DNA of 64,000 bases, from contig NC_086097.1 of NCBI RefSeq assembly GCF_963921235.1, positions 90,770,001 to 90,834,000 on the forward strand. Reading direction: 5' to 3'. The stretch's first letter is position 1. Each line of letters starts with the position of its first letter. This document shows positions 5,451 through 60,539 of this stretch, piece by piece. The notes beneath the pieces are model-generated. The model was not told the origin of the DNA, did no database searches, and worked only from the letters and a program-made list of their open reading frames with translations. The stretch comes from Mobula hypostoma (taxonomy: Eukaryota). Both the position numbers and the translations under genes were made by a program.

Positions 5451-5455
5451 CTTAC

Positions 5456-6310
5456 TGTTACGTACCCCGTAACTGGGTTGCCAAACCAGCAGAAATGGAT
5501 CACTCAGTTGGAGTCTGGAGTACTAGGACTAAGAAAGTTTTATTAAGGAAACAAGCAACACAGTAATCGAAAGGATAATAAATGCAACAGTTCAGTGATG
5601 ATAAACACACATGTGCACAGAATTAAGATAACAGCATCAATCAAGCTCTATCGTTGTCTAGGGGTAAATGACCAATTTCAAAATGACTCAAAGTTCAGTC
5701 CAGTTTAGTAGTTCAGTTCGCAGTAATCGTTGCCATGGCGGTGGACAATGTGGGGGAAGAGAGAGATAGAATAGGAACAACTCATCATTCAGAACGGCTT
5801 CACTCACAGACCAGCAGGATGGCTCACAGACCAGCGAGATGGCTCACAAACAGCTTTTGGGCAGGTCCTTGGTGATGTCACCTGAGGTCACCGACTGTGA
5901 CCCCTCCTCCAGATGCGGTCGATCCTCTGCAGTGAACCCGGCACCCAGGCAAGGGCGGACACACACCGGGTTCCCGCTGATCGTACCTTTCCACCCACTC
6001 GTGAGAAGCGTACCGCTTCCAGGGTCTCGTTACCTCGGGTGGCGTGTGTGTCTGTCTTAGCGAACCTGTCCCTTTTTATCCCCCTGCTGGGGTATCGCCT
6101 GTCCATCACTTCAAACAGTTCAGGGTTCAAAGGGGGGGAGCCGCTCCAGACAGCTCTTCCTCCCACATCCCTTCATTACACATCTCCAGACGCTGCTCCA
6201 TTGTTCCTTATCTCTCCTTCCCCTGAGGGCAGGTGGCAGACCAACTGCTGATGCCACTGATGCTAGCCCAGGCCAGCAAACATCTTAATTTTATGTGTAT
6301 TCTCGTAACA
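5456..6310 (-). repeat. 3' LTR
   Basis: Direct repeat of 9440-10294 (offset 3984; identical by eye and by ORF-track translations); adjacent to the PPT. Confidence 0.95.
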
Positions 6311-6323
6311 CTTCCCCCCTTTA
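6311..6323 (-). other. Polypurine tract
   Basis: Minus strand TAAAGGGGGGAAG directly precedes the TG of the 3' LTR. Confidence 0.85.
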
Positions 6324-6481
6324 AGGATTTTTACCGGGAGGTAAAAATTACAAACATGACTACATTATCTGATACATACACAATATACATCTTTAACAGT
6401 TATTTAGCTAATACGGAGAATTTGAAGCTGTCAACACCTTGACAGACAGTCATCACATTTCTGTTCCTTTTACACGTGTTA

Positions 6482-9340
6482 TTAATAATCCCTTAGACCA
6501 GGCTCCAACTCAGCAAACTTCATAGTGGCCAAAAACACTGATGAATTGCGACCAATGTAACCTCTCATTTGGTTTTGTCCCGGACCACAATAACAAGGGT
6601 CGTCCCATTCCGACTCAGTTTTCTCTCGCAAGGGCTTAGTAGGAGGGGGACGGGTATTGACCGCAGAGTTATTGCAAAACTTCCTGCAGTACCCCACCAT
6701 CTCCAAAAGCCTTCTGAGGGCCGTCTTGTCTGTCGGGGTTGGGAGGTCAGCGATAGCCTGCACTGTAGCTTGCATCACTGCCAGCTGCCCCTGTGTCACC
6801 ACAATTCCCAGGTAAGTGACATTCGTGTGGCCGAATTCATTTGTTCCAAGGCTCACTATCACGCTGGCTTCAGACAGCCGTGTTAAATTGCCAATACACA
6901 CCTCTGTGTTCATCAGCCCTTTAGTCACTGAATTACTCAAAAAATATGGGTGTTGTTTGCTTGGCCGCCCTATTGTAACAGACATAACCCAACGTCCCAG
7001 TTCTTTGCATTTCCTCGGGACAATCAAACACATAGGTGCGAGTCGTTTAATTACTCCTTCTAAAGATTCGCTTTGTTCGGGGATTAAGGGAGAGACCTTA
7101 TCAGTAGACCTGGCCAAAACAATAGCCTTCTCCCATCTGACCGATCCCATCCTAATCTTTTCAAAATGGTTTTTTCCTCTTATCAAGGGGCCCCTAGCTT
7201 CATTGATTTCCACGCTAACACCGACTAGGTTTGTTAGTATATCAAAAGCCGGTGACCGTCTCAGTTCGCGTCGGTCATGATCAATAACATTCTTCCCCCT
7301 GGGCAGCCGGTAACTCTCTTTCATGATTCCACCAACTGTTTCCTCCAGCACCGCAAAATGTCCACCGGGGGGTACCTCGTGGGCCATGTTAAAAACCTCA
7401 TCCCCATAACTCTTTTGCACCACCCCCCACTCCTCATCTGCGGATGCTGTACTTGATTTCCCTTTCTTCCTTAGCACTTCCTCATCCGCACAATAGCCTA
7501 CTAGTTCCCTTGTCAAGGCTGTGTCAGAGAGAGCTGTCTCGGCCAAAACCATCAGCCCCTCGTCTCGCTCCTGCGTCTGCACAAATTCTTTCCTGGCTAC
7601 TGCTACGTCCGTCCCAGCTCCCTCACTACCTCTTATCTCACTACACCCTGTCTCATACAAGGTTGGCAGAAATGTTTCAGCCAAATTCACCATCGCGGGC
7701 GGGGCCTCCATGCTGGCAGGCTGACCCGTCAATCTCACGACTGGGAACACGATTCCTCCGGCGATGTCATTACCGAGCAAGACTTCCACGTCTTTCATCG
7801 GTAATTCGGACCTCACCCCGATCGTGACTAGTCCAGAGACCAGGTTGCTCTGTAAATGTATCTGGTGCAAAGGGACTGACTCTGTCCCTTCCCCAACACC
7901 TTTGACCTCTACCTCCCCAGTCTGGGTCTCTGAGCTAAACTCTAATACACTCTTCAGTATTAGTGACTGACACGCTCCCGTGTCTCTCCAGATCCGCACT
8001 GGAACTGGTTTTAACCTCTTTTTCACTGACACCAGTCCGGCCGAGATAAACCTCTCGCGCCCTTCCTGGACTTTTTCAGACCTGTCCTTCCCTAGCGGTT
8101 CGCTTAACAGCTCAATACAGCCATTCAAAATTTCCGCTTTTCCTTTCCCCGTCTCCTTCCTTGGGGCAAAGCACCTGGACGCAAAGTGTCCGACTTTCCC
8201 ACAATTATAACAGACGACTCCAGGAGACTTCCCACCAGACTGCTCCCGGTCTACCTTATCCTTTTCACTAGTCCCCGGCTTACTTTCTGACTTTTCCGGC
8301 GGACTCTCCCCGCCGTCCTGACTACCCTTCTGGTAGCCTTTACTCGGGGCAACCTTCATTTTATGCGTCAACGCATACTCATCCGCTAACTTAGCAGTTG
8401 CGGCTAACGTGGCTGCCTCTTTCTCATCGAGGTAGGGTCTCATACCCTCAGGGACACAACCTTTAAACTGCTCAATCAGAACCAGTTGCAGCAGTCTGTC
8501 ATAATCCCCCTCTACCCCTTTCGAGGCGCACCAACGCTCACAATATGTTTGCATCTCACGAGCAAACTCCAAATACGTGCGGTCCCACCGCTTCCTCGCA
8601 TTCCGGAACCTCTGCCGGTATGCCTCCGGGACCAACTCATAAATCCTGAGGATGGCCTCCTTCACCACCTCATACTTCTGGGCATCTTCCGCGGATAAAG
8701 CGGAGTAAGCTTGTTGGGCTTTCCCTTTTAGTACACTTTGAAGTAAAACAACCCACTTATCCCTCGGCCAGTCCTGACTTATAGCTACTTTTTCGAAGTG
8801 GAGAAAGTACCGATCCACATCGGTATCGTCAAATGGGGGAACCAGCCTAACCTCCTGGGTCGCCCGGAACCCTCCACCTTGGTTCGGCACGAGCTCCTGC
8901 TCGGCCCTTATCTTTAACTTCTCCAGCTCAAATTCCCTTTCCCTCTGTTTCTCCTCTCTCTCCAACTGTCTTTCTCTCTCTTGCCTTTCTACCTCTTTCT
9001 CTCTCTCCCGCCTTTCTAACTCTCTCTCCTGCCTTTCTAACTGCTTCTCTTCGTGTTCTAACTGCCGTACCCGGAACTCGTGCTCGAGTCTCAGTTTTTC
9101 AAGCTGTACCTGTACCGCGTCTCCAGCAGGTTTTTCAATAGACACCTCCCCCAGCTCACCTTGGGGAAACACACCTTTAGATACATAGTGCTCTACAATA
9201 GCTCTGTGTATCTCCTCTCTCCTCATTGTCGACTTCACCTTAGCAAGATTCACCCGTTTTGCCACAGCTATCAATTCCGATTTCCTGGCATCCTCTAATG
9301 CCTCCAAGGTCGGCGCCTTTATAAATTCCTCAACCTCCAT
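6482..9340 (-). CDS. 952-aa Gag-protease polyprotein with degenerate integrase-N and RT remnants
   Basis: E/R-rich coiled coil, SCAN-related capsid (PEAYRQRFR...LVLIEQF), CCHC knuckle CYNCGKVGHFASRC, aspartic protease RDTGA...LLGND. Then integrase Zn-region relic AHEVPPGGHF, followed by RT relics KQHPY, VCIGNL (YxDD position), VTYLG and MVGYCRKFC. Confidence 0.9.
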   Translation of the reverse strand: MEVEEFIKAPTLEALEDARKSELIAVAKRVNLAKVKSTMRREEIHRAIVEHYVSKGVFPQGELGEVSIEKPAGDAVQVQLEKLRLEHEFRVRQLEHEEKQLERQERELERREREKEVERQERERQLEREEKQREREFELEKLKIRAEQELVPNQGGGFRATQEVRLVPPFDDTDVDRYFLHFEKVAISQDWPRDKWVVLLQSVLKGKAQQAYSALSAEDAQKYEVVKEAILRIYELVPEAYRQRFRNARKRWDRTYLEFAREMQTYCERWCASKGVEGDYDRLLQLVLIEQFKGCVPEGMRPYLDEKEAATLAATAKLADEYALTHKMKVAPSKGYQKGSQDGGESPPEKSESKPGTSEKDKVDREQSGGKSPGVVCYNCGKVGHFASRCFAPRKETGKGKAEILNGCIELLSEPLGKDRSEKVQEGRERFISAGLVSVKKRLKPVPVRIWRDTGACQSLILKSVLEFSSETQTGEVEVKGVGEGTESVPLHQIHLQSNLVSGLVTIGVRSELPMKDVEVLLGNDIAGGIVFPVVRLTGQPASMEAPPAMVNLAETFLPTLYETGCSEIRGSEGAGTDVAVARKEFVQTQERDEGLMVLAETALSDTALTRELVGYCADEEVLRKKGKSSTASADEEWGVVQKSYGDEVFNMAHEVPPGGHFAVLEETVGGIMKESYRLPRGKNVIDHDRRELRRSPAFDILTNLVGVSVEINEARGPLIRGKNHFEKIRMGSVRWEKAIVLARSTDKVSPLIPEQSESLEGVIKRLAPMCLIVPRKCKELGRWVMSVTIGRPSKQHPYFLSNSVTKGLMNTEVCIGNLTRLSEASVIVSLGTNEFGHTNVTYLGIVVTQGQLAVMQATVQAIADLPTPTDKTALRRLLEMVGYCRKFCNNSAVNTRPPPTKPLREKTESEWDDPCYCGPGQNQMRGYIGRNSSVFLATMKFAELEPGLRDY

Positions 9341-9416
9341 TTCTGCTGTTTGTCTTTTCTTTCTTTCGGGAATTTTAACCCAATCAATTTACTCCGTCCC
9401 AAATTTAGCGTTCAAA

Positions 9417-9435
9417 ATCCCGGACGAGCCCCCCA
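9417..9435 (-). other. Primer-binding site complementary to tRNA-Pro
   Basis: Minus strand TGGGGGGCTCGTCCGGGAT, 4 nt inside the 5' LTR; matches the tRNA-Pro PBS (TGGGGGCTCGTCCGGGAT) with one extra G. Confidence 0.9.
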
Positions 9436-9439
9436 CTTA

Positions 9440-10294
9440 TGTTACGTACCCCGTAACTGGGTTGCCAAACCAGCAGAAATGGATCACTCAGTTGGAGTCT
9501 GGAGTACTAGGACTAAGAAAGTTTTATTAAGGAAACAAGCAACACAGTAATCGAAAGGATAATAAATGCAACAGTTCAGTGATGATAAACACACATGTGC
9601 ACAGAATTAAGATAACAGCATCAATCAAGCTCTATCGTTGTCTAGGGGTAAATGACCAATTTCAAAATGACTCAAAGTTCAGTCCAGTTTAGTAGTTCAG
9701 TTCGCAGTAATCGTTGCCATGGCGGTGGACAATGTGGGGGAAGAGAGAGATAGAATAGGAACAACTCATCATTCAGAACGGCTTCACTCACAGACCAGCA
9801 GGATGGCTCACAGACCAGCGAGATGGCTCACAAACAGCTTTTGGGCAGGTCCTTGGTGATGTCACCTGAGGTCACCGACTGTGACCCCTCCTCCAGATGC
9901 GGTCGATCCTCTGCAGTGAACCCGGCACCCAGGCAAGGGCGGACACACACCGGGTTCCCGCTGATCGTACCTTTCCACCCACTCGTGAGAAGCGTACCGC
10001 TTCCAGGGTCTCGTTACCTCGGGTGGCGTGTGTGTCTGTCTTAGCGAACCTGTCCCTTTTTATCCCCCTGCTGGGGTATCGCCTGTCCATCACTTCAAAC
10101 AGTTCAGGGTTCAAAGGGGGGGAGCCGCTCCAGACAGCTCTTCCTCCCACATCCCTTCATTACACATCTCCAGACGCTGCTCCATTGTTCCTTATCTCTC
10201 CTTCCCCTGAGGGCAGGTGGCAGACCAACTGCTGATGCCACTGATGCTAGCCCAGGCCAGCAAACATCTTAATTTTATGTGTATTCTCGTAACA
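9440..10294 (-). repeat. 5' LTR
   Basis: TGTTACG...CGTAACA, 855 bp, adjacent to the PBS. Confidence 0.95.
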
Positions 10295-10429
10295 TTACTC
10301 ATTCACATCCATGGATACTTCAGTAAACAACATTGTTTTAAGAATTTTTAAAAAGTCTATCGATACTCAAACTCAGCAGACTCCGGACAGTAGGTTCAGT
10401 CATGATTGCTGTTCCCATTTAAGAAAAAG

Positions 10430-12843: not shown

Positions 12844-15800
12844 GAAACATAGAAACATAGAAACATAGAAAATAGGTGCAGGAGGAGGCCATTCGGCCCT
12901 TCGAGCCTGCACCGCCATTTATTATGATCATGGCTGATCATCCAACTCAGAACCCCACCCCAGCCTTCCCTCCATACCCCCTGACCCCCGTAGTCACAAG
13001 GGCCATATCTAACTCCCTCTTAAATATAGCCAATGAACTGGCCTCAACTGTTTCCTGTGGCAGAGAATTCCACAGATTCACCACTCTCCGTGTGAAGAAG
13101 TTTTTCCTAATCTCGGTCCTAAAAGGCTTCCCCTCTATCCTCAAACTGTGGCCCCTCGTTCTGGACTTCCCCAACATCGGGAACAATCTTCCTGCGTCTA
13201 GCCTGTCCAATCCCTTTAGGATTTTATACGTTTCAATCAGATCCCCCCTCAATCTTCTAAATTCCAATGAGTACAAGCCCAGTTCATCCAATCTTTCTTC
13301 ATATGAAAGTCCTGCCATCCCAGGAATCAATCTGGTGAACCTTCTTTGTACTCCCTCTATGGCAAGGATGTCTTTCCTCAGATTAGGGGACCAAAGCTGC
13401 ACACAATACTCCAGGTGTGGTCTCACCAAGGCCTTGTACAACTGCAGTAGTACCTCCCTGCCCCTGTACTCGAATCCTCTTGCTATAAATGCCAGCATAC
13501 CATTCGCTTTTTCACCGCCTGCTGTACCTACATGCCCACTTTCAATGACTGGTGTATAATGACACCTAGGTCTCATTGCACCTCCCCTTTTCCTAATTGG
13601 CCACCATTCAGATAATAATCTGTTTTCCTATTTTTGCCACCAAAGTGGATAACTTCACATTTATCCACATTAAATTGCATCTGCCATGAATTTGCCCACT
13701 CACTCACCCAACCTATCCAAGTCACCCTGCATCCTCTTAGCATCCTCCTCACAGCTAACACTGCCACCCAGCTTCGTGTCATCCGCAAACTTGGAGATGC
13801 TGCATTCAATTCCCTCATCCAAGTCATTAATATATATTGTAAACAACTGGGGTCCCAGCCCTGAGCCTTGCGGTACCCCACTAGTCACCGCCTGCCATTC
13901 TGAAAAGATCCCGTTTATTCCCACTCTTTGCTTCCTGTCTGCTAACCAATTCTCCACCCACATCAATACCTTACCCCCAATACCGTGTGCTTTAAGTTTG
14001 CACACTAATCTCTTGTGTGGGACCTTGTCAAAAGCCTTTTGAAAATCCAGATATACCACGTCCACTGGTTCTCCCCTATCCACTCTACTAGTTACATCCT
14101 CAAAAAATTCTGTGAGATTCGTCAGACATGATTTTCCTTTCACAAATCCATGCTGACTTTGTCCGATCATTTCACCGCTTTCCAAATGTGCTGTTATCAC
14201 ATCCTTGATAACTGACTCCAGCAGTTTCCCCACCACCGACGTTAGGCTAACCAGTCTATAATTCCCCGGTTTCTCTCTCCCTCCCTTTTTAAAAAGTGGG
14301 GTTACATTAGCCACCCTCCAATCCTCAGGAACTAGTCCAGAATCTAAAGAGTTTTGAAAAATTATCACTAATGCATCCACTATTTCTTGGGCTACTTCCT
14401 TAAGCACTCTAGGATGCAGACCATCTGGCCCTGGGGAATTATCTGCCTTCAATCCCTTCAATTTACCTAACACCACTTCCCTACTAACATGTATTTCACT
14501 CAGTTCCTCCATCTCACTGGACCCTCTGTCCCCTACTATTTCTGGAAGATTATTTATGTCCTCCTTAGTGAAGACAGAACCAAAGTAATTATTCAATTGG
14601 TCTGCCATGTCCTTGCTCCCCATAATCAATTCACCTGTTTCTGTCTGCAGGGGACCTACATTTGTCTTTACCAGTCTTTTCCTTTTTACATATCTATAAA
14701 AGCTTTTACAGTCTGTTTTTATGTTCCCTGCCAGTTTTCTCTCATAATCTTTTTTCCCCTTCCTAATTAAGCCCTTTGTCCTCCTCTCCTGAACTCTGAA
14801 TTTCTCCCAGTCCTCAGGTGAGCCACTTTCTCTGGCTAATTTGTATGCTTCTTCTTTGGAATTGATACTATCCCTAATTTCTCTTGTCAGCCACGGGTGC
14901 ACTACCTTCCTTGATTTATTCTTTTGCCAAACTGGGATGAACAATTGTTGTAGTTCATCCATGCAACCTTTAAATGCTCGCCATTGCATATCCACCGTCA
15001 ATCCTTTAAGTGTCATTTGCCAGTCTATCTTAGCTAATTCACGTCTCATACCTTCAAAGTTACCCCTCTTTAAGTTCAGAACCTTTGCTTCTGAATTAAC
15101 TATGTCACTCTCCATATTAATGAAGAATTCCACCATATTATGATCACTCTTACCCAAGGGGCCTCTCACGACAAGATCGCTAATTAACCCTTCCTCATTG
15201 CTCAAAACCCAGTCCAGAATAGCCTGCTCTCTAGTTGGTTCCTCGACATGTTGGTTCAAAAAACCATCCCGCATACATTCCAAGAAATCCTCTTCCTCAA
15301 CACCTTTACCAATTTGGTTCACCCAATCTACATGTAGATTGAAGTCACCCATTATAACTGCTGTTCCTTTATTGCACACATTTCTAATTTCCTGTTTAAT
15401 ACCATCTCCGACCTCACTACTACTGTTAGGTGGCCTGTACACAACTCCCACCAGCGTCTTCTGCCCCTTAGTGTTACGCAGCTCTACCCATATCGATTCC
15501 ACATCTTCCCGGCTTATGTCCTTCCTTTCTATTGCGTTAATCTCTTCTTTAACCAGCAACGCCACCCCACCTCCCCTTCCTTCATGTCTATCCCTCCTGA
15601 ATATTGAATATCCCTGAACGCTGAGCTCCCATCCCTGGTCACCCTGGAGCCATGTCTCTGTGATCCCAACTATATCATAATCATTAATAACAATCTGCAC
15701 TTTCAATTCATCCACCTTATTACGAATGCTCCTTGCATTGACACACAAAGCCTTCAGGCGCTCTTTTACAACTCTCTTAGCCCTTATACAATTATGTTGA

Positions 15801-16181
15801 AAAGTGGCCCTTTTTAATGCTTGCCCTGGATTTGTTGGCCTGCCACTTTTACTTTTCTCCTTTGTACTTTTTGCCTCTACCCTCACTTTACACCCCTCTG
15901 TCTCTCTGCACTGGTTCCCATCCCCCTGTTGTGAACTAATCTCCTCACGCCTAGCCTCTTTAATTTTATTCCCACCCCCCAACCATTCTAGTTTAAAGTC
16001 ACCTCAGTAGCCCCCGCTAATCTACCTGCCAGGATATTGGTCCCCCTAGGATTCAAGTGTAACCCGTCCTTTTTGTACAGGTCACGCCTGCGCCAAAAGA
16101 GGTCCCAATGATCCAAAAACTTGAATCCCTGCCCCCTGCTCCAATCCCTCAGCCACGCATTTATCCTCCACCTCATCGCAT
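12844..16181 (-). mobile_element. Young 5'-truncated CR1 LINE: ORF1 C-terminus, nearly intact ORF2 and 3' (TTTCTATG)n tail
   Basis: ORF1 SGNH-esterase end (DGLHLN) at 15988-16176; ORF2 endonuclease plus RT; 8-bp terminal repeats at 12844-12870. Confidence 0.95.
12947..15997 (-). pseudogene. CR1 ORF2 (APE endonuclease + reverse transcriptase), with frameshifts near 13700 and 13510
   Basis: [51 protein letters not shown] 4-bp duplication in CACTCACTCAC near 13700 breaks the frame. Confidence 0.9.
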
Positions 16182-18546: not shown

Positions 18547-21500
18547 GTGATGAGCGTCCTTGATGAGGATGGTTTGGACCCAAATGCTGGAGCATCCAAG
18601 GCTAGGATTGAGACACGGAATAAAACTGGATCGAGAACTGAGCACAGAACAAAACTCCAGACGATATCTCTGGTTGGGCTTATGACTGAGCACTGAGGCT
18701 CTGTTTAGGTGTTGTTTAAATATTCAGTTCTTGGCACCCAAAACATGTTTGCCAATTAGCGGGATGGCCTGAATCTTTAAACAGGTCTTGACAGCTATCC
18801 ATATTCCGGAGAGCTAGAGTGTCTAAACCCCGGAAGCTGGCGTGATTGGGTGCATGATTTAACAGGATCCTCTCCTCTACGGCCTACTCCTAATGGCCCT
18901 GGCTGATCAGAGAGAAAATGATGATGGTAGTCTTGGATGAGAACTGGATCCAAGATGACCCAGCACCATTCCTCAGTCTGATCGCATGGATGAACTAGAA
19001 CAATTGTTCATCCCAGTTTGGCAAAAGAATAAATCAGGGAAGGTAGTGCACCGGTGGCTGACAAGGGAAATTAGGGATAGTATCAATTCCAAAGAAGAAG
19101 CATACAAATTAGCCAGAAAAAGTGGCTCACCTGAGGACTGGGAGAAATTCAGAGTTCAGCAGAGGAGGACCAAGGGCTTAATTAGGAAGGGGAAAAAAGA
19201 TTATGAGAGAAAACTGGCAGAGAACATAAAAACGGACTGTAAAAGCTTTTATAGATATGTAAAAAGGAAAAGACTGGTAAAGACAAATGTAGGTCCCCTG
19301 CAGACAGAAACAGGTGAATTGATTATAGGGAGCAAGGACATGGCAGACCAATTGAAAAATTACTTTGGTTCTGTCTTCACTAAGGAGGACATAAATAATC
19401 TTCCGGAAGTAGTAGGGGACAGAGGGTCCAGTGAGATGGAGGAACTGAGCGAAATACATGTTAGTAGGGAAGTGGTGTTAGGTAAATTGAAGGGATTAAA
19501 GGCAGGTAAATCCCCAGGGCCAGATGGTTTGCATCCCAGAGTGCTTAAGGAAGTAGCCCAAGAAATAGTGGATGCATTAGTGATAATTTTTCAAAACTCT
19601 TTAGATTCTGGACTAGTTCCTGAGGATTGGAGGGTGGCTAATGTAACCCCACTTTTTAAAAAAGGAGGGAGAGAGAAACCGGGGAATTATAGACCGGTTT
19701 GCCTAACATCAGTGATGGGGAAACTGCTAGAGTCAGTTATCAAAGATGTGATAACAGCACATTTGGAAAGAGGTGAAAACATCGGACAAAGTCAGCATGG
19801 ATTTGTGAAAGAAAAATCATGTCTGACGAATCTCATAGAATTTTTTGAGGATGTAACTAGTAGAGTGGATAGGGGAGAACCAGTGGATGTGGTATATTTG
19901 GATTTTCAAAAGGTTTTTGACAAGGTCCCACACAGGAGATTAGTGTGCAAACTTAAAGCACACGGTATTGGGGGTAAGGTATTGATGTGGATAGAGAATT
20001 GGTTGGCAGACAGGAAGCAAAGAGTGGGAATAAACGGGACCTTTTCAGAATGGCAGGCGGTGACTAGTGGGGTACCGCAAGGCTCAGTGCTGGGACCCCA
20101 GTTGTTTACAATATATATTAATGACTCGGATGAGGGAAATAAATGCAGCATCTCCAAGCTTGCGGTGACACGAAGCTGGGCGGCAGTGTTAGCTGTGAGG
20201 AGGATGCTAAAAGGATGCAGGGTGACTTGGATAGGTTAGGGGAGTGGGTAAATTCATGGCAGATGCAATTTAATGTGGATAAATGTGAAGTTATCCACTT
20301 TGGTGGCAAAAATAGGAAAACAGATTATTATCTGAATGGTGGCCGATTAGGAAAAGGGGAGGTGCAACGAGATCTGGGTGTCATTATACACCAGTCATTG
20401 AAAGTGGGCATGCAGGTACAGCAGGCGGTGAAAAAGGCGAATGGTATGCTGGCATTTATAGCAAGAGGATTCGAGTACAGGAGCAGGGAGGTACTACTGC
20501 AGTTGTACAAGGCCTTGGTGAGACCACACCTGGAGTATTGTGCGCAATTTTGGTCCCCTAATCTGAGGAAAGACATCCTTGCCACAGAGGGAGTACAAAG
20601 AAGGTTCACCAGATTGATTCCTGGGATGACAGGACTTTCATATGATGAAAGACTGGATGAACTAGGCTTATACTCATTGGAATTTAGAAGATTGAGGGGG
20701 GATCTGTTTGAAATGTATAAAATCCTAAAGGGATTGGACAGGCTAGATGCAGGAAGATTGTTCCCGATGTTGGGGAAGTCCAGAATGAGGGGCCACAGTT
20801 TGAGGATAAAGGGGAAGCCTTTTAGGACTGAGATTAGGAAAAACTTCTTCACACAGAGAGTGGTGAATCTGTGGAATTCTCTGCCACAGGAAACAGTTGA
20901 GGCCAGTTCATTGACTATATTTAAGAGGGAGTTAGATAAGGCCCTTGTGGCTAAAGGAATCAGAGGGTATGGAGGGAAGGCTGGTACAGGGTTCTGAGTT
21001 GAATGATCAGCCATGATCATACTGAATGGCGGTGCAGGCTTGAGGGGCTGAATGGCCTACTCCTGCACCTATTTTCTATGTTTCTATGTTTCTATGAATC
21101 CTTCCTAGTCCACAAGGAGCTGTCAAACACCCTGAACAGTCTGTGAATCTAAAATTCTTCTCACAGTGAAGACCTGCTCCCCATCGCCAAACCTGGGTAG
21201 CGGCAGGACTGATGGTCGTGGGGCTAACAGACTGGTGTTCACAGGTTTTAATTTGGAAATATGGAAGGTGGGAACTGGGCGTTGGGGAGCTGTAAGGTGT
21301 AAGTCACCAGGTTTCCTTTCCTGAGAATCTTGAAGTGTCCAATGAACTTGGGCACCAATTTCCTAGACTCCACTCGGAGAGACAAATCCTGAGTCAATAG
21401 CCAGGCCCATTGTCCATGCTGCAAACTGGTCCCCGTCTTCTCTTGTGGTTAGCCTTTATTTCAGCCTTCCGGGTAGAGGCCAACAAAATCTCCCTTGCCC

Positions 21501-24500
21501 TAGTTCATTTCTCCTTGCAGCATTGAATGCGATCTTTGGCCACAGGAACCCCAACCTCAGCTGCCTGCTCAGGGAAGAGTGGCGGAGAATACCCAAGCTG
21601 CATAGAAATAGGAACATCCTGTGTGCCGAATGCCATGGAGTGTCCTAGGTGACCTCTGCCCACATCAAATAGTCACACACTCATCTCGTCTTTCAGAGGC
21701 CAGGCACATTAGGATTTGTTCCAAATCCTGGTTCATCTGCTCCATCCGGCTGTTGGGCTGCAGGTTAGACCCAGAGGAAAGGCTCACCGTTGCCCCAACA
21801 GGCTTACAGAACACCCTCCAAAAATATGATGTGAATTGCAGACCACCACCTAACACAATTTCCACTGGAAAACCATAAATCCTGAAGACCTGGTGAAGGA
21901 CAATTTCAGCCATCTCCATCGCAGATGGTAGTCTATCCAAGGCGAAGAATTTGCAGACCTTCGAGAAATGATCCACGATTACTACGCTAACGGTCTTCCC
22001 CCAGGAAGGAGAAAGACCAATGACAGAGTCCAAGGAGAAGTGCACCCGTGGTCTTTCTGGAACAGGCAGTGGGTGAAGGAGCCCTTGAGGCTGGGTGCGA
22101 GTCTCCTTGTTCTGGATGCACACCTCACGTGCCTACACGTAACGATGGACCTCCCTTGTCCGTCCAGGCCACCAAAATCATCTCTTAATGAACTCAAGGG
22201 TCCTGGCAATCCCTGGGTGAACAGTCACTTTCGATGCATGTCCCCATTGAAGAACCTGGGACCAGACGGAATTAGGAATGAACAGCCGACCCAGAGGACT
22301 GTTCTGAGGAATCTCCCCTTGATCTTGGGCCTTGAGTCTCCAATGCATTGGTGCTATCACCTTGGCTTCGGGCAAATTAGTGGTAGGCTGTTCCTCTTGT
22401 TCAGGTTCGTCAAAATGACAGGATAAGGCATCTGGCTTCTGTTTTTTCGGCCCTGGTCGATAGGGCAGGACAGAATTAAAGCAGTGAAAGAAAAGAGACC
22501 ACCTGGCCTCCCTGTAGTTTAGTATCTTTGCATCTTGAGTAGAAGCCAGGTTCTTATGGTCTGCCCATACGATAAAAGGGTTCTTGGTCCCCTCAAGCCA
22601 GTGATGTCATTCCTGCAGAGCCAACCTGACTGAGAGCAGTTCTCTATTCCCAGTGTCATAGTTCACCTCTGCCGGGGATAGTCCCCTGGAAAAGAACACA
22701 CATGGGGGCAGTTTATTGTACGGAGGTGTCTGTTGTAGCAATACTGCACCCACTCCGACATCCGAGACATCCACCTCCACAATGAAGGGAAGGTCTGGGT
22801 TGGATGTAGTCAAAATGGGAGCAGTTGTGAACCGCTGTTTGAGCTCTGCAAAAGCAGCCTACTCTTTGGTAGTCCAAACGAAAGGGCTCGTGGATCTTTT
22901 GGTTAATGCTGTCAGCAGAGCTGCCCCTAAACTGAAGTTTCTGATGAACTTTGCATAAAAGTTGGCAAATCCCAGGAATCATTGGACTTGTTTCATACTG
23001 GATGGTTGTGGCCAATCTGTGACTGCCTGCTTCTTACTAGGGTTCATCTTGAGATCGCCATTAGAGATGACGAAGCCCAAAAGTGAAATGGTGGTTATGT
23101 GACACTTGGACTTCTCCATATTGATGTAACATCCATGAGCAAGAAGCCCTTCTAGGATATCTATGACATGAACTCCTCCATGGACTTGCAGAAAATTAGG
23201 ACATTGTCCAAGCAGACAAATGCGTACTTATGGACAATGTCTCAGAGTACATTGTTTGTAAAGGCCTGGAAAGCTGCTGGCTTGTTCACAAGGCTGAGGG
23301 GCATGACCTGATACTCATAGTGCCCTGTCGGTGCCCTGTGAATGCCGTCTTCCACTCGTCACCCTCCTTTATGCAGACCAGATTGTACGCAATCCACATG
23401 TCTAGCTTTGAGAATACTCTTGACCCTTGGAGAACCTCAACGGCAGTGTTCATGAGAGGAAGAGGGTAACGATTCCTGACTGTTATGCAATTCAGCCCTC
23501 TATAATCAATGCATGGCCACAGGCTCCCATCTTTTTACTGTACAAAGAAGAATCCGGCTGGATAATTGGAGGGCTGAATGAATCCCGCGGCAAGAGCTTC
23601 CTTTACATATCTCCTCCATAGTGCTTCACTCCGGGCCTGAGAGCGTGTAGTCGACCCCATGGAGGACAAGTACCAGGCAGTAGATCTATTGCATAGTCAT
23701 AATATCCATGTGATGGAAGAGTCGAAGCCTTTCCTTTGCTGAAGACATCTTACAAATCCTTGTATGCAGAAGGGATTTCTACCTGCTCGGGTGCTGTAAT
23801 TACCCCCAAAACTTTCTCCGAGGACAACTCCTGAGGCTCTTTAGGTAGCGGGGGTAATTCAGCAGACTCCAGGGTCTCCTCCATGTCCACAAGAGAAAAC
23901 AGAGGCCACATCACAGTCCAAATCCTCATCTGTCCCCACAGACATTGACAGTGAAGTCCTTGTGCTCCTGGGACTTGGCTCCAAGGGTCTCCATTCTGGA
24001 GCCTTCTACTTAGACAAGCCCTGGCAACTGGAGCCCTTTGGCTTAGTTGTTAGAGTTCCAGACTGCTTGGGCACCTCCTTGGCTTGCTCCTGAACTAGAG
24101 ATGTAGTTCCTGCACTCTCCTGACGGGTCTGGGTCAGGACTTGCATGGGTCTGTTGGCTGGAGCTGGCTTGTCTGCCCCCTCACTGGCCGCTGGTCTCAG
24201 GAGAGTCTGGGGATTGGAACACCAAGACAAAAACACACTTTCTTGCAGCTACTGGACCATGCAATGATCCTTCATTCCTTCCAGTTCACCAAAGGGTTAT
24301 GCTGGGACAGCCAAGGATGCCTGAGGATCAGGGGTATGTGAGGAGACTCAATAATAGAGAAACTAATGTCCTCTGCGTGATCTTCTCTCCTCATCTGCAA
24401 GACCAATGTCTGCTGCCAGATCTGCTCAGAACCAAGCAGACGGCTGTCTGAGACAGTGGCTGGCATGGGCTGGCTCAACTTCTGCAGCGGTATGCGTGGT

Positions 24501-43271: not shown

Positions 43272-44132
43272 TGTTACGTACCCCGTAACTGGGTTGCCAA
43301 ACCAGCAGAAATGGATCACTCAGTTGGAGTCTGGAGTACTAGAACTAAGAAAGTTTTATTAAAGAAACAAGCAACACAGTAATCGAAAGGATAATAAATG
43401 CAACAATTCAACAATGATAACCACACATGTGCACAGAATTAAGATAACAGCATCAATCAAGCTCTATCGTTGTCTAGGGGTAAATGACCAATTTCAAAAT
43501 GACTCAAAGTTCAGTCCAGTTTGTAGTTCAGTTCGCAGTAATCGTTGCCATGGCGATGGACAAGGTGGGGGAAGAGAGAGATAGAATAGGAACAACTCAT
43601 CATTCAGAATACTGCTTCACTCACAGACCAGCGGGATGGCTCACAAACAGCTTTTGGGCAGGTCCTTGGTGATGTCACCTGAGGTCACCGACTGTGACCC
43701 CTCCTCCAGATGCGGTCGATCCTCTGCAGTGAACCCGGCACCCAGGCAAGGGCGGACACACACCGGGTTCCCGCTGATCGTACCTTTCCACCCTTGTCGT
43801 TGTCTGGGACTTCTCACCCACTCGTGAGAAGCGCACCGCTTCCAGGGTCTCGTTACCTCGGGTGGCGTGTGTGTCTGTCTTAGCGAACCTGTCCCTTTTT
43901 ATCCCCCTGCTGGGGTATCGCCTGTCCATCACTTCAAACAGTTCAGGGTTCAAAGGGGGGAGCCGCTCCAGACAGCTCTTCCTCCCACATCCCTTCATTA
44001 CACATCTCCAGACGCTGCTCCATTGTTCCTTATCTCTCCTTCCCCTGAGGGCAGGTGGCAGACCAACTGCTGATGCCACTGATGCTAGCCCAGGCCAGCA
44101 AACATCTTAATTTTATGTGTATTCTCGTAACA
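43272..44132 (-). mobile_element. Solo LTR of the same family as 5456-10294
   Basis: TGTTACG...CGTAACA, 861 bp, 4-bp TSD CTGG (43268-43271, 44133-44136); near-identical to the paired LTRs. Confidence 0.95.
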
Positions 44133-45161: not shown

Positions 45162-47769
45162 AATAATGATTGATTAATCATTCTTTGATGCTTACAGATT
45201 TATATGTAAAAGTACATGAATGGTTTACATCATTATGCCACCATATTATATGTGTGTGCATTATTAAAGTAAAATTGAAGAGTAGACATGTTTATCCCTA
45301 GTCCTCTGTTTTTCGTTAAATTACTGTTGGAGTTACAAAACATAACAGCTGTGACCAGGACTTTTAAAACAAACCTGAGACGACAAACCTGTGTTGAAGC
45401 ACAGCAAGATAATCACATTTAAAAGGAATCTTAAAAAGAAATTTCTCTTTGGAAAGGGAAGGCAGAGACAGTTGAGATAAATAAGGGCAGAAAGTGAACA
45501 AATTCACAGGTTCATAAACAGTCAGTAATAATAATAAAATTTAAGGAAGCAGAAATGTCTGCCTATATAGAAAAGATGGACACGTTTAATTGCATATCGG
45601 ATAACTGCTTAATATATACTGAGTGAACTGAGCAGTATTTTAAGTAAATGAAATAGCCAATGACAAACGAGTACCAGTTTTGCTGAGTGCAATTGGTAGA
45701 CGAGCCTACAGTTTGCTTGGAAGTTCGACTGCTCTAATCAAACCAGCCAAAATAAGCTTTGCTGATATCGTGAAAATAATGCAGGAACATTTAGAACCAA
45801 AGCCATTGTTGATTGCAGAATGCTTTAGGTTTCATAAATGGAATCAAAAGGGAAAAGAGTCTATTTCAGCATGTGTGGCTGAACTGAAGAAGTTGTCTGA
45901 GCATTGTCAGTTCAGTGTTGGGCCTAATGATGCATTGAGAGATCATTTAGTTTGTGGAATCTTACAAGAAATTCAAAATGGCTCCTAACTGAAGCACAAC
46001 TTTCATTTAAAAAAAAGTTGAAATCGCTGCATTAATAGAAACCGCAGTGAGGTACACATGTGAGTTACAGTCAGGAATGAGACTGTGAACAAAACTGCAA
46101 CATCTAACCAGAAATCAACCTGGCTGAACAAATAGTGTTATTATTGTGGCAGGGTCTCACACACATCAGAACAATACAGGTTTAAGGTGAAACTTGCAGA
46201 AAGTGCAACAAAGTAGGACACACATCAGACAGACAAAAATAAATTTACCGAACAGGGAGAGAAAAAAAAATACAAAAAGTCAAGTTATAGTTTCAAAAGG
46301 AGCACGAGTCTACGTGCTGTGGATGAAAATCTGATTTTGGCAAGGAATGAGTAGCCTTGAGATTTTCAATGTGAAAACTAACAGGAGACAATCAACATGG
46401 CTGACACCAGAAGTGAACAGCAAATTAATTAAATGGAATTGGACACAGGCTCGGCTGTTTTGGGCATTCCACAAATTGTGTTTGAATGGCATTTCAAAGA
46501 TACTGAACTGAAGCTTGCAGATACCCAACCAGGAACTTCTATTGGAGAAAAGATAACTCCTGTGGGAATGACATTTGTAACAGTGAAATACAACAACCAA
46601 CAAGTCACATTGGGCTTGTATATGATAAAAACAGGAGGGCCAGCATTGTGGGGATGTGATAGGCTGAGCCAACTCGATTGGAGATCCATCCACCATTTGC
46701 ATGCCACATCCTCTGCAAAAAGTCAACTGAAAGTGAATTAAGAAAGTTACTGGATGATGCCATAGCAGTGTTCAAGGACACAATTGGAAAACATCAAACA
46801 TATCAAGGGTAAAATAACGTTGAATGAAAATGCCACACCCAAGTTTTATAAAGCCTGTCCGGTTCCTCATACCATCTGTGATCAAGTAGCCAGTGAGTGA
46901 GATCGCATGCAGGCTGAAAGAGTTCTTTCCAAGTCTGACTGGAGCCCATAGGCAATGCCAGTGATCTCAATGGCAAGAATGATGGGTCTGTGGTGATTTT
47001 AAGGTCATCATCAACCTTAAAAGTAGATTAATACACTCTGCCCAACATGGAGAATATCTTTGTAAACCTTTCCGGAAGGATACACTTCAGCAAAATGGAC
47101 TTAGCTGAGGCCTACCTACAGATGGAGATTGAAGAAGAGTCCAAAGTTTTTCTCACCATAAACATTCACAAAGGGCTTTATCGCTATAATAGGCTTATTT
47201 TCGGAGTAGTATCTGTACTCTGGCAGAAAGCTATGGTCCAGGTGCTGCAAGGCTGTCCAGGTACTCTGTGGTACCTGGAACATATCATTGTTACCGGTAA
47301 GGATGACAAAGAACATCTTCAAAATATCAAGAATTGAAGATTATGCACTCCGAGCACAGCGAGACGAGTGAATTCTTTAAACCAAGCATTACTTACTGTG
47401 GTCACACCATTGACGTAAAAGTATTACACAAGGGTGCTGAGAAAATTCAAGCAGTGGTGGATGCCCCAGGGCCAAAAGATGTGTCGCAGTTGCAGTCCCT
47501 ATTATGATTTATCAACTACTATAGCAGGTTCCTGCCAAGCCTGGCTACCATGCTCTACCCTTGAGTTCATTACTGCAAATTGGAAAGAAATGGCAATGGA
47601 CCAAGCAGTGTGAGGTGGCTTTCAAAAAGGTAAAGGAAATGGTGACATCAGACACTGTACTCACTCATTATGATCCACATCGTCCAGTGAAGCTTGTCTG
47701 TGATGTCTTGCCTAAGGGTATAGGTGCAGTCATGTCACATGTTGTGAGTGATGGAAGTGAACACCCCAT

Positions 47770-49519
47770 AGTCACAGTAGGGGTGCTGGGAACGGACCCA
47801 AATGCAAGACACAGACACTGAAGTACAAGGGACAGGACTTGACTAGAGTAGGGACGTGACAGGATTCAGGCAAGGAGCAGGGACAAGAACGCAGAGTTGG
47901 GTTAGGGAAAGTGGGACCAGGACTAGGAACCATGGTCTAGGAGGCAAGGCTTGGATTCTGAGCCCGAGACTTGACAAGGACCCAGAAGCTGGGTCTTGCC
48001 TTGGGCTTGGACCCCGGAACCAGGCAAGGACATGACACGGCTTAGGGCTGGGGTCTTGGGTCTTGAGCTTGGCTTGGGATCCTCGAGGCTTGGGGGTCTT
48101 GGGTCTTGAGCTTGGCTGCAGGCTGGGGTCTTGGGTCTTGAGCTTGGCTTGGGATCCTCAAGGCTTGGGTTCTTGGAGCTTGGCTTGGGATCCCCGAGGC
48201 TTGGGGTCTTGGGTCTTGAGCTTGGCTTGGGATCCTCAAGGCTTAGGGTCTTGGGTCTTGAGCTTGGCTTGGGATCCTTGTGGCTTGGGGTCTTAGGTCT
48301 TGAGCTTGGCTTGGGATCCTCAAGGCTTGGGGTCTTGGGTCTTGAGCTTAGCTGCAGGCTGGAGTCTTGGGTCTTAAGCTTGGCTAGGGATCCTCAAGGC
48401 TTGGGTTCTTGGAGCTTGGCTGCAAGATCGTCGAGGCTTGGGTTCTTGGAGCTGGCTGCAGGATCATCGAGGCTTGGGTTCTTGGAGCTTGGCTGCAGGA
48501 TTGTTGAGGCTTGGGTTCTTGGAGCTTGGCTGCAGGATCGTCGAGGCTGATAACTCGGAGACTGGAGCTGAGAGACGGACTGGGAACTGAATATCAACAT
48601 AGAGCCGGGACTTATCCTTCGACAAGCCAGGACTCATCTTTAACACAACACAAACATGAGACAGGACAGAACATAGACATAGAGCTGGGACTTATCCTAC
48701 GACAAGCCAGGACTCAACTTCATCTCCACACCAAGGTGGGATAGGTCTCTCCATCAGATAACGGCAGAACAGCCGGATTTACCCAACAGAGGCAAGGAAA
48801 AGACAAGATAGGTCCCCCCACAGGGCAATGGCAAAACAGCCTGGTTTACTCCACGGAGGCGAAGACAAGACAGATCTCCCCTGCAGGGCAACGGCAAAAC
48901 ATCCTGGCTTACCCCACGGAGGCGAGGACAAGACAAGACAGATCCCCCCACAGGGCAATGGCAAAACAGCCTGGCTTACCCCACAGAGGCGAGGACAAGA
49001 CAAGACAGATCCCTGTGCAGGGCAACGGCAAAACGACCTGGCTAACCCCACAGAGGCAAGGACAAGAAAAGACAAACACCAAAGAAAGACAGACAGTTCC
49101 ATCTCTGCTCCAGGGAAGCTCTGAGTCTCAGTTCAGCCAGCAACCTCAGCTGGCTACGGAAACAGCCAGATCCCTACCTAGCTTGGAGTGGCTGGCAGCC
49201 ACTCAGCTGGCCCAGGAAGTAGCCAAATCCATACCGCAAAGACCACTCCAATGAGTGGCAACAAGGCTCCATGAAGTAGTAGTCCTCCAACCAGGCCTAG
49301 AGATCTCAAATGGTTTCACTAGCCTTCCATCAGCAGGTTGCTCCAAGGGGGACTGATGAGACAAACCAGCAGCCCCCACTCAATCCCAAGGCAAGCCCAA
49401 AGATGGGAATCAGGTGCCTATGATTAATTCAAACAAGGGACAGCCGGAAGACCCGGAGTCCTGAGTCCACGGACCGGACCGTGAACCGGAATATGGACTT
49501 CACGGACCGGACCATGACA
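47770..49519 (-). mobile_element. Large solo LTR-like insertion (1750 bp) inflated by tandem arrays
   Basis: AGTCAC...ATGACA termini with 5-bp TSD CCCAT (47765-47769, 49520-49524); interrupts Gypsy RNase H at EHPI. Confidence 0.75.
48043..49070. repeat. Compound minisatellite: about 42-bp, 37-bp, 78-bp and 60-65-bp units
   Basis: GGCTTGGGGTCTTGGGTCTTGAGCTTGGCTTGGGATCCTC..; GGCTTGGGTTCTTGGAGCTTGGCTGCAGGATCGTCGA; CAGGGCAATGGCAAAACAGCCTGGCTTACCCCAC...GACAAGACAGAT. Confidence 0.9.
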
Positions 49520-51412
49520 CCCATAGCCTTACTGCTGCAGAGAAAAAATACACACAGATTAACAGAAAGGCCTTGAGTCTAGTTTGGGGTGTAAAATATT
49601 TCAACCAGCACTTGCAGGGGAGCGTTCACCCTCATTGCTGATCAACAACCACTAGCATCCATTTTCAATCCACAGAAGGGTGTTCCACTAATGGCAGCAG
49701 CATAAATGCAGAGCTGGGCTCTGTTCCATGGAAGACACAATTATAAAATCGAATTCAAGAGGACAAGTAATCAAAGAAATGTTGATGGATTGTTGATGGA
49801 TTTTCTCATTTACCCTTTGAAAAAGAAATACCTGAAAAATTTACAAAAGAGGACACTCTTCTTGACATATTCTCCCTAATGCAAATTGAAGAGATGATTG
49901 TAGCGGAGATGATCCAAAGGGAAACCAGAAAATGCTCCACATGGTCTTATGTCTACATGGGCACCCAAAATGGCTGGAACGAGCTGCAAAAATTCCAGTT
50001 CCTCCAATTTTACCAGTGCGGGGATGAACTTGTCCTTGACGTGGTTTACCTTATATAGGAATTGAGCGTTGTGGTACCATCCAAGCTGAGAGCTAAATTG
50101 TTGGAGCAGCTACATGCCAGTCATCTAGATGCGGTCAAAATGCAGGTGTTGGCTTGAAACTTTGTCTGGTGGCTTGGGAAAGATCCTTCAGATCAAGCTG
50201 CTTGCCATGCATTGTTCTGGATGCCAACATATCCAGAAGATGCCAAGAACAGTGCCTATCCATCCTTGGAAATGGCCTGCATTGCCTTAGCAGAGGATTC
50301 AAGCGTATTTTGCCAAGCCATCCATGGGCACAAATTTCTTAGTAGTACTGGATGCAGCTACAAAGTGGCCAGAAGTGTTCCCAATAGCCTTCACTGTTGA
50401 TGTGTTGAGAAGCATCTTCTCAAGGACTAATGTTCCAGAACACCTAATCAGTGACAATGAACCACAGTTTGTTGTGGAACAGTTTCAGTCATTCCTGAAA
50501 ATGAATGGAATAAGACATATTACATCTGCACTATACCACTCAGCTACAGATGGTTAAGCAGAAAAGATTTGTCCAGAGTCTAAAGAAAGTACTGTGAGCA
50601 ATATCAACTAAACAAACTACACTTACACTGAAGCAGACGTTCAACAATTTCTTCCTTGCATATCACAATGTAGCACACTCAACCAGCAACTCTCCAGCTA
50701 TGCTGTTCCGGGATTGTCCCTTGTGTTCCTGCTTAGATATCCCCAAATCCAGTTTCAGAAGGAGAATGCAGGACAAATAGCTGAGACAAACTGAGGGCTC
50801 CTTAAACCAGGTGGTTCAATGTTTCACTCCTGGAAAAGCAGACTTGGTAAGCGACTACAGATGTGATCAAAAGTGGGTACTTGGCAAGATTAAGGACAGA
50901 ACTTGACCACTCTCCTATACAGTGGAGCTTGTGTCTGATGTCATCTGGAGATGACACACTGATCAGCTGAGGAGAGCAGAAGTCAATTGTTAGAGAAGAA
51001 ATGTGTCCAGGGCTGTCAAAACCACTTCCTGCAGTCCCCGAGTTAACACCTACAACCACCACAGAGGAGGCCCCAGAAACTGAGATTTCTTCACAGTCAC
51101 AAACCTCACCTTGCAAGTAGAGTGGACACCAGCTTGTCAGGAAAGACATTATTCCACAAGAGTAAGAAATCTCCACAATGATTAAATCATTAGGCCTGAA
51201 TACGACAATTTAAAATGTACTATTCTGTGGATTTCTATATAGTAGTTGTATTATATAGTATATGTATATAACTTGAGATGCATTCTATATTGAATTGGAG
51301 TTTATAGCTAAGTAGGGAGGAGTGCTGTGTATTTAATATTTCAGTAATATTTGACTAATCTTGTAAATATATAGTTTGATTAAGCGTTCTTTGTTGTTTA
51401 CAAAGAATGCAT

Positions 51413-58900: not shown

Positions 58901-59035
58901 GAAGTTTAAGAGACTACTGGACAGTTATATGGAGGAATTTAAGGTGGGGGGGTTATATGGGAGGCAGAGTTTAAGGGTCGGCACAACATTGTGGGCTGTA
59001 GGGCTTGTACTGTGCTGTACTATTCTATGTTCTTT
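55985..59035 (+). mobile_element. Nested CR1 (ORF1 esterase 56077-56421, decayed ORF2 56565-58900)
   Basis: [44 protein letters not shown]; tail TATTCTATGTTCT. Confidence 0.9.
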
Positions 59036-60539
59036 CAGACATGACTTGGACAGGCTCACAACATCATACCTGCCAATCTCCAACTGCACTACAAGATCAC
59101 CTATTTTATTCCATATACTGCGTGTATTCATATATAATGCATTCAATCCTGTTTTCATATTTACGCCTTCAGTCCTATATTCATTACCTTTTTTGATTTT
59201 GCCCCCAGTTACACTTCAATTCATCCCACTGCAGTTTTATCCTATCATCTGGCCTGTCCTTCCTGACAGTCTCACCGCATAATGCATTGGCTTGTATACT
59301 GATTGTCCCATCCTCAGCCCAGTTACTCCGGTTCCCACCCCACTGCCATATTCGTTTAAATCCTCCCCAATAGCACTAGCAAACCTGCCCTCGGGTTCAG
59401 GTGTACCTGTCCTTTTTGTACAGGTCGTACCTTCTCCAGAAGAGATCCCAGTGATCCAGAAATGTGAAACCCTAACCCTGCACCACTCCCTCAGCCGTTC
59501 ATTCATCTGTACTCTCATCCTATTCCTGTCCTGATGAGCACGTGTTACTGGGAGTAATTCAGCAATTACTACATTGGAGGTCTTGCTCCTCTGTCTCTTC
59601 CCTAACTTCCTATACTCATTCTACAGGACTTTTTCTTTTCCCCTGCCCTCTTTCTTCCCATGTCCTTGGTGCCAATGTGCATCATGACCTCTGACTGCTG
59701 ACCATCCCTCTTGAGAATCTTCGGCAGCCGCTCTGAAAAATCTTGGACCTTAGCACCTGGGAAGCAGCCCACCATCCTGGTTTCTCTTTCACGGCCACAT
59801 AATCTGCTGTCCGTCCCCCTAACTATTGAGTCTCCTATCACTATCATTCTGCCTGTCTTTACTTTTCCCTGCTGAGCCTCAGAGCCGGCCACGGTGCCAC
59901 TGGCCCGGCTGTTGCTGCCGTTCCCTGATAGGTCATTTCCCCCACACCCACCCCCGGCAGTATCCATAGGGGTATATTTCCTGCTGAGAGAAATAGCCAC
60001 ATGGAAACCTTGCACTGATTTCTTATCCCCCTTACTTCTCCTGGTGGTCACCCATCCACTGTTTGATTCCTGAACTCTGGGTGTGACCATCTCTGCAAGC
60101 ATCTCATCTATTAGGATTTCAGCCTTTCTGATGGTCCGAAGAACATCCAGCTCCAGCCCTATTTCGCTGATGTTGGGTGAACTTCTTTCACCAGAGAGAA
60201 CATTAGGTACCCTAAAATCCCATATCTCACAGCAGAAGCATTTTGTTGCCATAACTACCACCTTGCCTACCCTTGTCATACCTCTAACTTCTCAAACTGA
60301 AGCTCTAGCCTGCTCCTGTTCTTGCCCAAGCCCGCTGAGCCAAATTCTGGCCCCTCTAATAGTCCAACAATGGCCGCTCTGCTTACACCTCACTTCTCTT
60401 TATTGTCCCCTGCCAGATGCCTAAAAAAATTGCAATGATTGCAGCCTGCCAAAAAGTTCCTAAAGGCTCCTAGCTCTTTTTAAACTTTGTGCTGTCACAC
60501 CAATGAACAACCTCTCACGAGATTGCAGCGTGCCAAAAA

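Follow-up and report, generated by a model that had tools for sequence, protein, structure and literature searches.

Why would a retrotransposon that has lost its replication enzymes keep hundreds of codons of their remains open to the ribosome? This question is raised by a 64,000-nt stretch of the genome of the devil ray Mobula hypostoma (contig NC_086097.1, positions 90,770,001 to 90,834,000, forward strand), hereafter the window. At window positions 5456-10294 it holds, on the minus strand, a Gmr1-like long terminal repeat (LTR) element of 4,839 bp. One open reading frame (ORF), 6485-9340 on the minus strand without the stop codon, encodes 952 aa, of which the last ~400 are a pol remnant, here called the relic. 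Comparison with relatives indicates that the amino acids of this relic drift while its frame stays open, and this combination is what is new here. The reading we prefer, held with modest confidence, is that of a young, multi-copy, semi-autonomous Gmr1-like devil-ray element that likely borrows its enzymes and whose relic likely serves as open filler against nonsense-mediated decay (NMD).

The relic remained after deletions of 289 aa in the integrase, 128 and 18 aa in the reverse transcriptase (RT) and ~86 aa in RNase H (Table 1). The integrase deletion removed the CxxC, the whole DDE core and most of the C-terminal domain. In RNase H, the first two catalytic acids were deleted and Gly stands at the position of the last catalytic Asp. 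The catalytic residues of DDE, RT and RNase H are all gone, deleted or, at the Asp positions left, substituted, and the element cannot copy itself. With the enzyme cores deleted, RT and integrase would have to be supplied from outside. The remnants are collinear with the order protease, integrase, RT, RNase H, and a Gmr1-like origin is supported by sequence. A sequence-only reading of this DNA had already described an integrase reduced to its HH half without a DDE core, and CIGN at the YxDD position. Both descriptions hold, as does its expectation that profile searches would find no intact RT or integrase, since Pfam returned 0 families for the relic alone. Its statement that no RNase H is recognisable needs correction, as a 25-aa patch remains.

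The best preserved part of the relic, the RT thumb patch, still matches complete relatives at 82 bits. ESM Atlas searches with the relic gave a best value of 0.81 (RT/RNase H clusters), no better than shuffles. Complete single-ORF polyproteins matched the relic significantly in the ORF frame only. In this frame test the patches scored 232 in the ORF frame versus -86 and -93 in the other sense frames and -64±14 in 40 shuffles. A less eroded manta form, P0147, was found among 1.84 billion representatives and is 56% identical over aa 547-918 of the window ORF. Its record is labeled Mobula birostris, and its source assembly is M. yarae according to 10.64898/2026.10.27.761883. With complete elements as reference, P0147 shares the 289-aa and 128-aa deletions with the window copy; the 18-aa deletion after YxDD is absent from P0147. 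P0147 reads YIGD where the window copy reads CIGN, and Pfam places Integrase_H2C2 ahead of RVT_1 in it. Of the 408 aa of P0147, residues 5-404 align to the window DNA in a single frame. Based on the frame test and this one-frame match, FWPGL and WDVGL in other frames (E 0.7-9) were dismissed as chance. An assignment of aa 678-733 to pieces of the integrase core was ruled out by the comparison with P0147, which shows the core to have been lost in one deletion; aa 690-733 are the integrase C-terminal tail and linker.

To describe selection on the relic, the window copy was compared with P0147, a site being called conserved if 80% or more of 20 complete elements have the same residue. Site counts omit P0147 aa 1-22 (1-39 in the stop-expectation and relative-rate counts), 170-198 and 404-408. 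Changes affected 58/131 conserved and 84/192 other sites of the relic (44% vs 44%; odds ratio (OR) 1.02, p 1.0). The same test gave ORs of 0.18-0.24 (p 2.5e-4 to 4e-10) in four capsid and protease controls and of 0.28 in a control of two integrase-bearing relatives. Conserved residues were kept at 64 of 131 sites in the relic and at 112 of 138 in capsid and protease. No single patch departed significantly from this pattern (OR 0.9-1.9), and the six patches were alike in their identity to P0147 (p 0.13). With a stingray outgroup, the window lineage and P0037 had 43 and 6 private changes, respectively, in the first part of the relic, and 35 and 17 in Gag-protease (Fisher p 0.018). Among nine near-full copies, divergence was 0.065 in the relic vs 0.030, which is 2.2 times faster. 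Changes shared by copies were conservative in the capsid (mean BLOSUM 1.57) and at or below 0 in the relic. No ancestral constraint acts on the residues of the relic.

The frame behaved differently. At least eight indels on the window lineage are all whole codons, with a chance of 1.5e-4 at one in three, although close compensating pairs are possible since the comparison uses proteins alone. Of 374 relic residues, 166 differ from P0147 (~219 changes when corrected), and zero stops occur up to aa 916. The nonsense/missense ratio for these codons is 0.043-0.055, so that 150-220 changes would give 6-12 expected stops (probability of none, P0, 1.6e-3 to 5e-6). In the read table, length is not divisible by three for 9/10 indels outside the ORF and is divisible by three for 2/2 inside it, among the best 12 of 42 rows in a ranking that favours LTRs. 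The frame is open beyond chance, and selection acts on the frame and not on the ancestral protein, with NMD as the likely cause. The sequence-only reading had proposed selection on translation through the relic: its view of the open frame stands, but the new protein role it considered is disfavoured by the drift at conserved sites.

How could decay of the RNA keep a dead reading frame open? In the mechanism we propose, one RNA would be both message and genome. Ribosomes would read Gag, protease and relic and stop 171 nt ahead of the 3' LTR. The only AATAAA of the LTR lies at LTR position 767; with this stop position, the 3' untranslated region (UTR) would measure ~0.96 kb, versus ~2.2 kb for a stop right after the protease. 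A long 3' UTR attracts UPF1 and sets off decay, retroviruses need countermeasures, and Rous sarcoma virus depends on a dedicated element behind the gag stop (PMC2925335, PMC4764554). Ty1 and Ty3 RNAs are not divided into translated and packaged pools (PMC4974528). Where the message is the genome, decay would mean fewer copies. Early-stop variants would have less stable RNA and leave fewer copies, and pol would be able to shrink by whole codons only. The tail would be a waste product removed by the protease, and RT and integrase would come from an unseen partner. Gag supplied by the element would dilute the 1:1 Gag:Pol output of the single-ORF complete relatives.

A second case of an in-frame tail was found in stingrays. 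In Hypanus and Hemitrygon proteins, Gag-protease is followed by another kind of tail, at most 315 aa long, which is a decayed in-frame duplicate running from the capsid end to the protease. The match scores 116-158, compared with shuffle means of 42-50. This tail has no pol similarity above shuffles and is unrelated to the Mobula relic. P0038, P0040, P0062 and P0290 end at one common place. The stingray proteins group as a clade of their own (100/100), next to a Hypanus protein that bears an integrase; the family is known from proteins. Two unrelated junk tails kept open point to translation itself as the selected trait. We tentatively suggest, as a possibility somewhat short of probable, that ray Gmr1 elements twice independently evolved a Gag-protease helper with 300-400 residues of C-terminal junk, kept in frame for no other reason than to let ribosomes travel to the 3' end. 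If true, the shrinking of a vertebrate retroelement would be governed by RNA surveillance rather than by protein function, and P0037, P0147 and the window copy would form a fossil series that records it stepwise.

The structure is not single-copy. The integrase join is present in 13 M. hypostoma RefSeq proteins on 12 scaffolds; 8 of these reach the same C-terminus and 5 stop early, and two further proteins break before the join. P0004 and P0005 share one break at ~aa 846, the only one seen in two copies, and a late one, which shows that on at least one occasion the last 100 residues could be dispensed with. Since the assembly of M. hypostoma is Nanopore-based (10.64898/2026.10.27.761883), some copy breaks may be errors. 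The Gag-protease tree, built from Gmr1-type rows only with no outside outgroup and without P0039 and P0027 (anchor motif not found), is a ladder of P0037 (integrase-bearing), P0145, P0032, P0030, P0015, P0009, P0005, P0004 and the window copy, as expected of successive source elements. P0002, P0015, P0020 and P0032 are named in RefSeq as isoforms of the host genes MACC1, UBE2G2, PPM1Lb and phosphatidylserine decarboxylase; these names reflect either misannotation or chimeric transcripts.

Part of this stretch also occurs in 20 sequencing runs, drawn from 6 studies and 4 coded organisms. None of them is on record as RNA; X8 may be RNA. In the four runs examined, 154 (X1) and 133 (X9) contigs pass from the LTR end (9440) into sequence of a different kind. 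Summed contig depth (2-5e5 in the internal region vs 13.9 in the junction contig) was not taken as copy number. In organism D, one contig covers 6826-7027, including the two RT joins, without a gap and with 22 differences; in organism B, one covers 7106-7299. The relic of ~400 aa persists across organisms A, B and D.

The window copy is young. The sequence-only reading had noted identical LTRs, a perfect target site duplication (TSD), a primer binding site (PBS), a polypurine tract and an unbroken ORF, and all were confirmed: the LTRs (5456-6310 and 9440-10294) are identical at 855/855 positions and end in TG...CA, and TTAC stands on both sides. LTR-LTR identity caps the divergence at <0.35%. 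Sharks and rays mutate slowly, so that this shows the element to be young but leaves its present movement no more than possible. The insertion target was old LINE (long interspersed nuclear element) debris. In run X9 of organism B, one contig matches the window only from 10295 onward, the first base past the element; this suggests that the insertion site is empty there, on a contig whose other 38 letters were not displayed. The PBS equals the murine leukemia virus (MLV) PBS-Pro probe printed in PMC4587795 except for one more G (six vs five). The five-G form is a minority in the reads, with ~8% of summed depth in X1 and <1% in X9, and the extra G is thus a family trait. The window also holds a solo LTR of the same family (43272-44132, 93% identical, own TSD CTGG), which differs by a 20-nt repeat unit and a 24-nt block.

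The capsid, zinc knuckle and protease are intact. On the whole protein, Pfam found only SCAN (E 1e-12) and zf-CCHC above cut-off, and in the protein searches the annotated matches among those listed were SCAN-bearing elements. A structure model of aa 150-545 (122-row alignment) had a mean predicted local distance difference test score (pLDDT) of 81. In this model the protease matched retroviral proteases (Foldseek E 4e-4; Z 10.7, root mean square deviation (rmsd) 3.5, 99 aligned), the capsid C-lobe matched the PEG3 SCAN domain (Z 10.8, rmsd 3.0, 92 aligned) and the capsid matched the dArc1 capsid (Z 8.0, rmsd 9.9). Together with the constraint at conserved sites, these folds agree with the earlier claim of an intact capsid and protease, and the SCAN capsid and the integrase remnant ahead of RT agree with the Gmr1-clade traits it named. 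An AlphaFold model of the full protein (15-row alignment) had a pLDDT of 34, with everything beyond residue 235 below 50, and says nothing on the folding of the relic. The Glu/Arg-rich coiled coil (8953-9055) differs widely in length between copies, in frame.

Several observations weigh against our preferred reading. Counting only the clear changes of the window lineage (55-62), just 2.6-3.3 stops are expected (P0 0.04-0.08); the strong stop deficit counts both lineages. P0147 came to light because it is open, and all relatives are annotated proteins, a set biased to open frames. The Gag-protease of the window lineage is also faster than that of P0037 (35 vs 17). The 34 DNA variants in the ORF show no separation between relic (6 synonymous, 11 not) and Gag-protease (8 and 9; p 0.73), although these come from the best 40 of 542 variants and are too few to decide. 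Among the M. hypostoma family proteins, 15 extend into the relic and 7 of these end early, and the older relatives P0009 and P0030 end at ~aa 591-593. Breaks of other copies in the relic, which the sequence-only reading had named as evidence against itself, thus occur in part, beside the copies that reach the C-terminus. Many long 3' UTRs evade NMD (PMC4764554). A complete partner was not found among the proteins searched, where the nearest integrase-bearing ones (P0037, P0033 and P0145) are incomplete. Proteins of >1,666 aa gave 4 matches, none from a ray. The best 24 of 1,970 loose ends included no strong one at a relic join; a partner may still exist.

With more belief than doubt, we place the NMD reading first, before cis-packaging, a new role for the protein, chance and use by the host. 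Translation of the relic could serve packaging if ribosome transit or a longer nascent polyprotein ties Gag to the RNA that encodes it (cis preference) or alters the RNA structure needed for encapsidation. This makes the same prediction of an open frame with free amino acids, and the single RNA pool of Ty1 and Ty3 (PMC4974528) suits it. Mini-Ty1 and mini-Ty3, however, still move with proteins in trans after most of their internal sequence is gone (PMC4974528), and Gag is made already before the relic is read, leaving this explanation rather unlikely. A little less credible is a new or residual role of the relic polypeptide, such as a tether to the partner's RT or integrase, a targeting signal or bulk particle cargo. 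The persistence of ~400 aa in organisms A, B and D, the recognisable RT thumb and the eight copies with the same C-terminus would fit such a role. Against it, no patch spares ancestrally conserved sites, identity to P0147 is even, shared changes are conservative in the capsid but not in the relic, the truncation at ~aa 846 got copied, and the stingray family has an unrelated tail.

Selection on the frame could also be an illusion produced by template switches at in-frame microhomologies, with the absence of stops due to luck and to the ascertainment of open copies. The two largest joins do lie at dipeptides found on both sides of the gap in complete elements, Arg-Arg at the 289-aa integrase join and Arg-Met at the 128-aa RT join, and both the restriction to annotated open proteins and the 7/15 broken copies speak for this explanation. 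But microhomology cannot clear nonsense substitutions, of which 6-12 were expected, and it accounts neither for the read-table indels, off-frame outside the ORF and in-frame within it, nor for long open tails in two clades; we regard it as improbable. Least credible, and very much so, is that the host keeps these ORFs, either as a co-opted Gag or as a restriction factor, a parallel being zebrafish Bik Gag. The annotation does treat several copies as host-gene isoforms, and young gag-only elements can serve the host (PMC12067270). The subfamily ladder, the identical LTRs with a fresh TSD, the copies scattered over 12 scaffolds and the likely empty site in organism B point instead to selection during copying and not at fixed loci.

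Among known systems, the Gmr1-like layout of SCAN, protease, integrase and RT-RNase H has been published (10.1101/2025.03.03.638093). The element shares with Gmr1-like Ty3/gypsy elements the SCAN capsid, the protease, the integrase before RT/RNase H and the single ORF (complete relatives 1,440-1,760 aa). It differs from the complete ones in that ~520 aa of pol are gone through four large deletions, with no catalytic set left; it is therefore no match for an autonomous LTR retrotransposon, the DDE, RT and RNase H catalytic residues being gone. The wheat 'semi-autonomous' GAG-Pro elements RLG_Sabrina_SA and RLG_WHAM are likewise high-copy gypsy elements with intact Gag and protease; they have no RT or integrase and are believed to supply a partner with Gag, RLG_Wilma being proposed (PMC9744471). 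In these plant elements the pol coding sequence is absent, whereas the vertebrate element carries ~400 aa of dead pol fused in frame, and no partner was found. Non-autonomous RLC_Angela of wheat, with many frameshifts and stops, is the opposite of the window element (PMC9744471). RLG_Quinta (GAG + DUF1) also derives from an autonomous gypsy element and its ORF joins Gag to an extra stretch; no protease is listed for it, its DUF1 is thought to be acquired and its partner is identified, whereas the tail here is traceable pol (PMC11302176).

The sequence-only reading had likened the element to TR-GAG and MaLR. MaLR is a mammalian, ERV-L-derived, non-autonomous LTR element. TR-GAG elements share LTRs, PBS, polypurine tract, one Gag-bearing ORF and several copies (PMC4350172). 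Their definition requires <4 kb and no protease, integrase, RT or RNase H similarity (PMC4350172), which places the window element, with 4.8 kb, a protease and pol remnants, outside it. The wheat GAG-Pro elements fit better than TR-GAG. Zebrafish BHIKHARI elements Bik-1 and Bik-2 are vertebrate, young and non-autonomous with a Gag ORF, that of Bik-1 having an N-terminal coiled coil; they differ in being retroviral in origin, without pol components and with a demonstrated host role of Gag (PMC12067270). Identical LTRs, the TSD and 13 loci on 12 scaffolds do not match a domesticated Gag/SCAN host gene. In the literature searched, whose scope excluded most subscription papers, Repbase, Dfam and the repeat tables of the manta preprint, we found no description of the family, nor of a pol relic that drifts neutrally in frame.

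Long open frames are usually taken as a sign of protein function or host co-option, and the copies described here are listed in RefSeq as genes. In this family openness is separated from function, with hundreds of codons open and their residues drifting. Its open and broken copies offer a natural many-copy test of NMD shaping transposon evolution. It would also extend Gag-protease helper elements from cereals to a Gmr1 lineage of vertebrates; amniotes owe their SCAN domain to the Gmr1 clade.

Table 1. Parts of the Gmr1-like element in window coordinates, and members of the stingray family
Feature	Position	Strand	Basis or remark
TSD TTAC, left	5452..5455	none	4 bp, same as right flank
3' LTR	5456..6310	-	855 bp; single AATAAA at ~5539-5544
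Polypurine tract AAAGGGGGGAAG	6311..6322	-	12 nt, directly adjoins 3' LTR
Single ORF, 952 aa plus stop	6482..9340	-	stop 171 nt short of 3' LTR
RNase H remnant (aa 917-941)	6518..6592	-	25 aa, after ~86-aa deletion
RT thumb/connection remnant (aa 821-916)	6593..6880	-	best recognisable patch; 18-aa deletion just before
RT YxDD position (aa 815-818)	6887..6898	-	reads CIGN
Join of 128-aa RT deletion (aa 800-801)	6938..6943	-	fingers/palm including first catalytic Asp gone
Integrase C-terminal tail, integrase-RT linker and RT N-terminus, remnants (aa 692-799)	6944..7267	-	
Join of 289-aa integrase deletion	7268..7273	-	at Arg-Arg; comparison with P0147 and complete elements
Post-protease linker and integrase N-terminal remnant (aa 549-689)	7274..7696	-	both His of HHCC
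Protease, retropepsin fold (aa 425-535)	7736..8068	-	DTG at 7976-7984; motif, structure model
CCHC zinc knuckle (nucleocapsid)	8171..8215	-	Pfam
Two-lobed capsid (aa 158-327)	8360..8869	-	SCAN-like C-lobe 8360-8629; Pfam, structure model
N-terminal helical region and Glu/Arg-rich coiled coil (aa 1-150)	8891..9340	-	length-variable; copy comparison, model
PBS, tRNA-Pro type plus one extra G	9417..9435	-	match to MLV PBS-Pro probe
5' LTR	9440..10294	-	855 bp, no difference from 3' LTR
TSD TTAC, right	10295..10298	none	4 bp, same as left flank
Stingray family members			P0038, P0290, P0035, P0039 (Hemitrygon); P0040, P0062, P0136, P0052 (Hypanus); P0034

Rfam, tRNA and bacterial promoter scans of the window gave nothing useful. 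Elsewhere it holds old, broken gypsy relics of RT, RNase H and integrase at 22421-23645 (minus strand) and at 46975-47773 and 50213-50566 (plus strand); in the plus-strand relic, RT precedes integrase. The other gypsy relics in the window were rejected as a partner, being ~26-36% identical to the reference, a complete Gmr1-type protein. Long LINE-type ORF pieces lie at 12876-16003, 18959-21056, 56981-60291 and 62896-63999, some of them stop-free over >400 codons.

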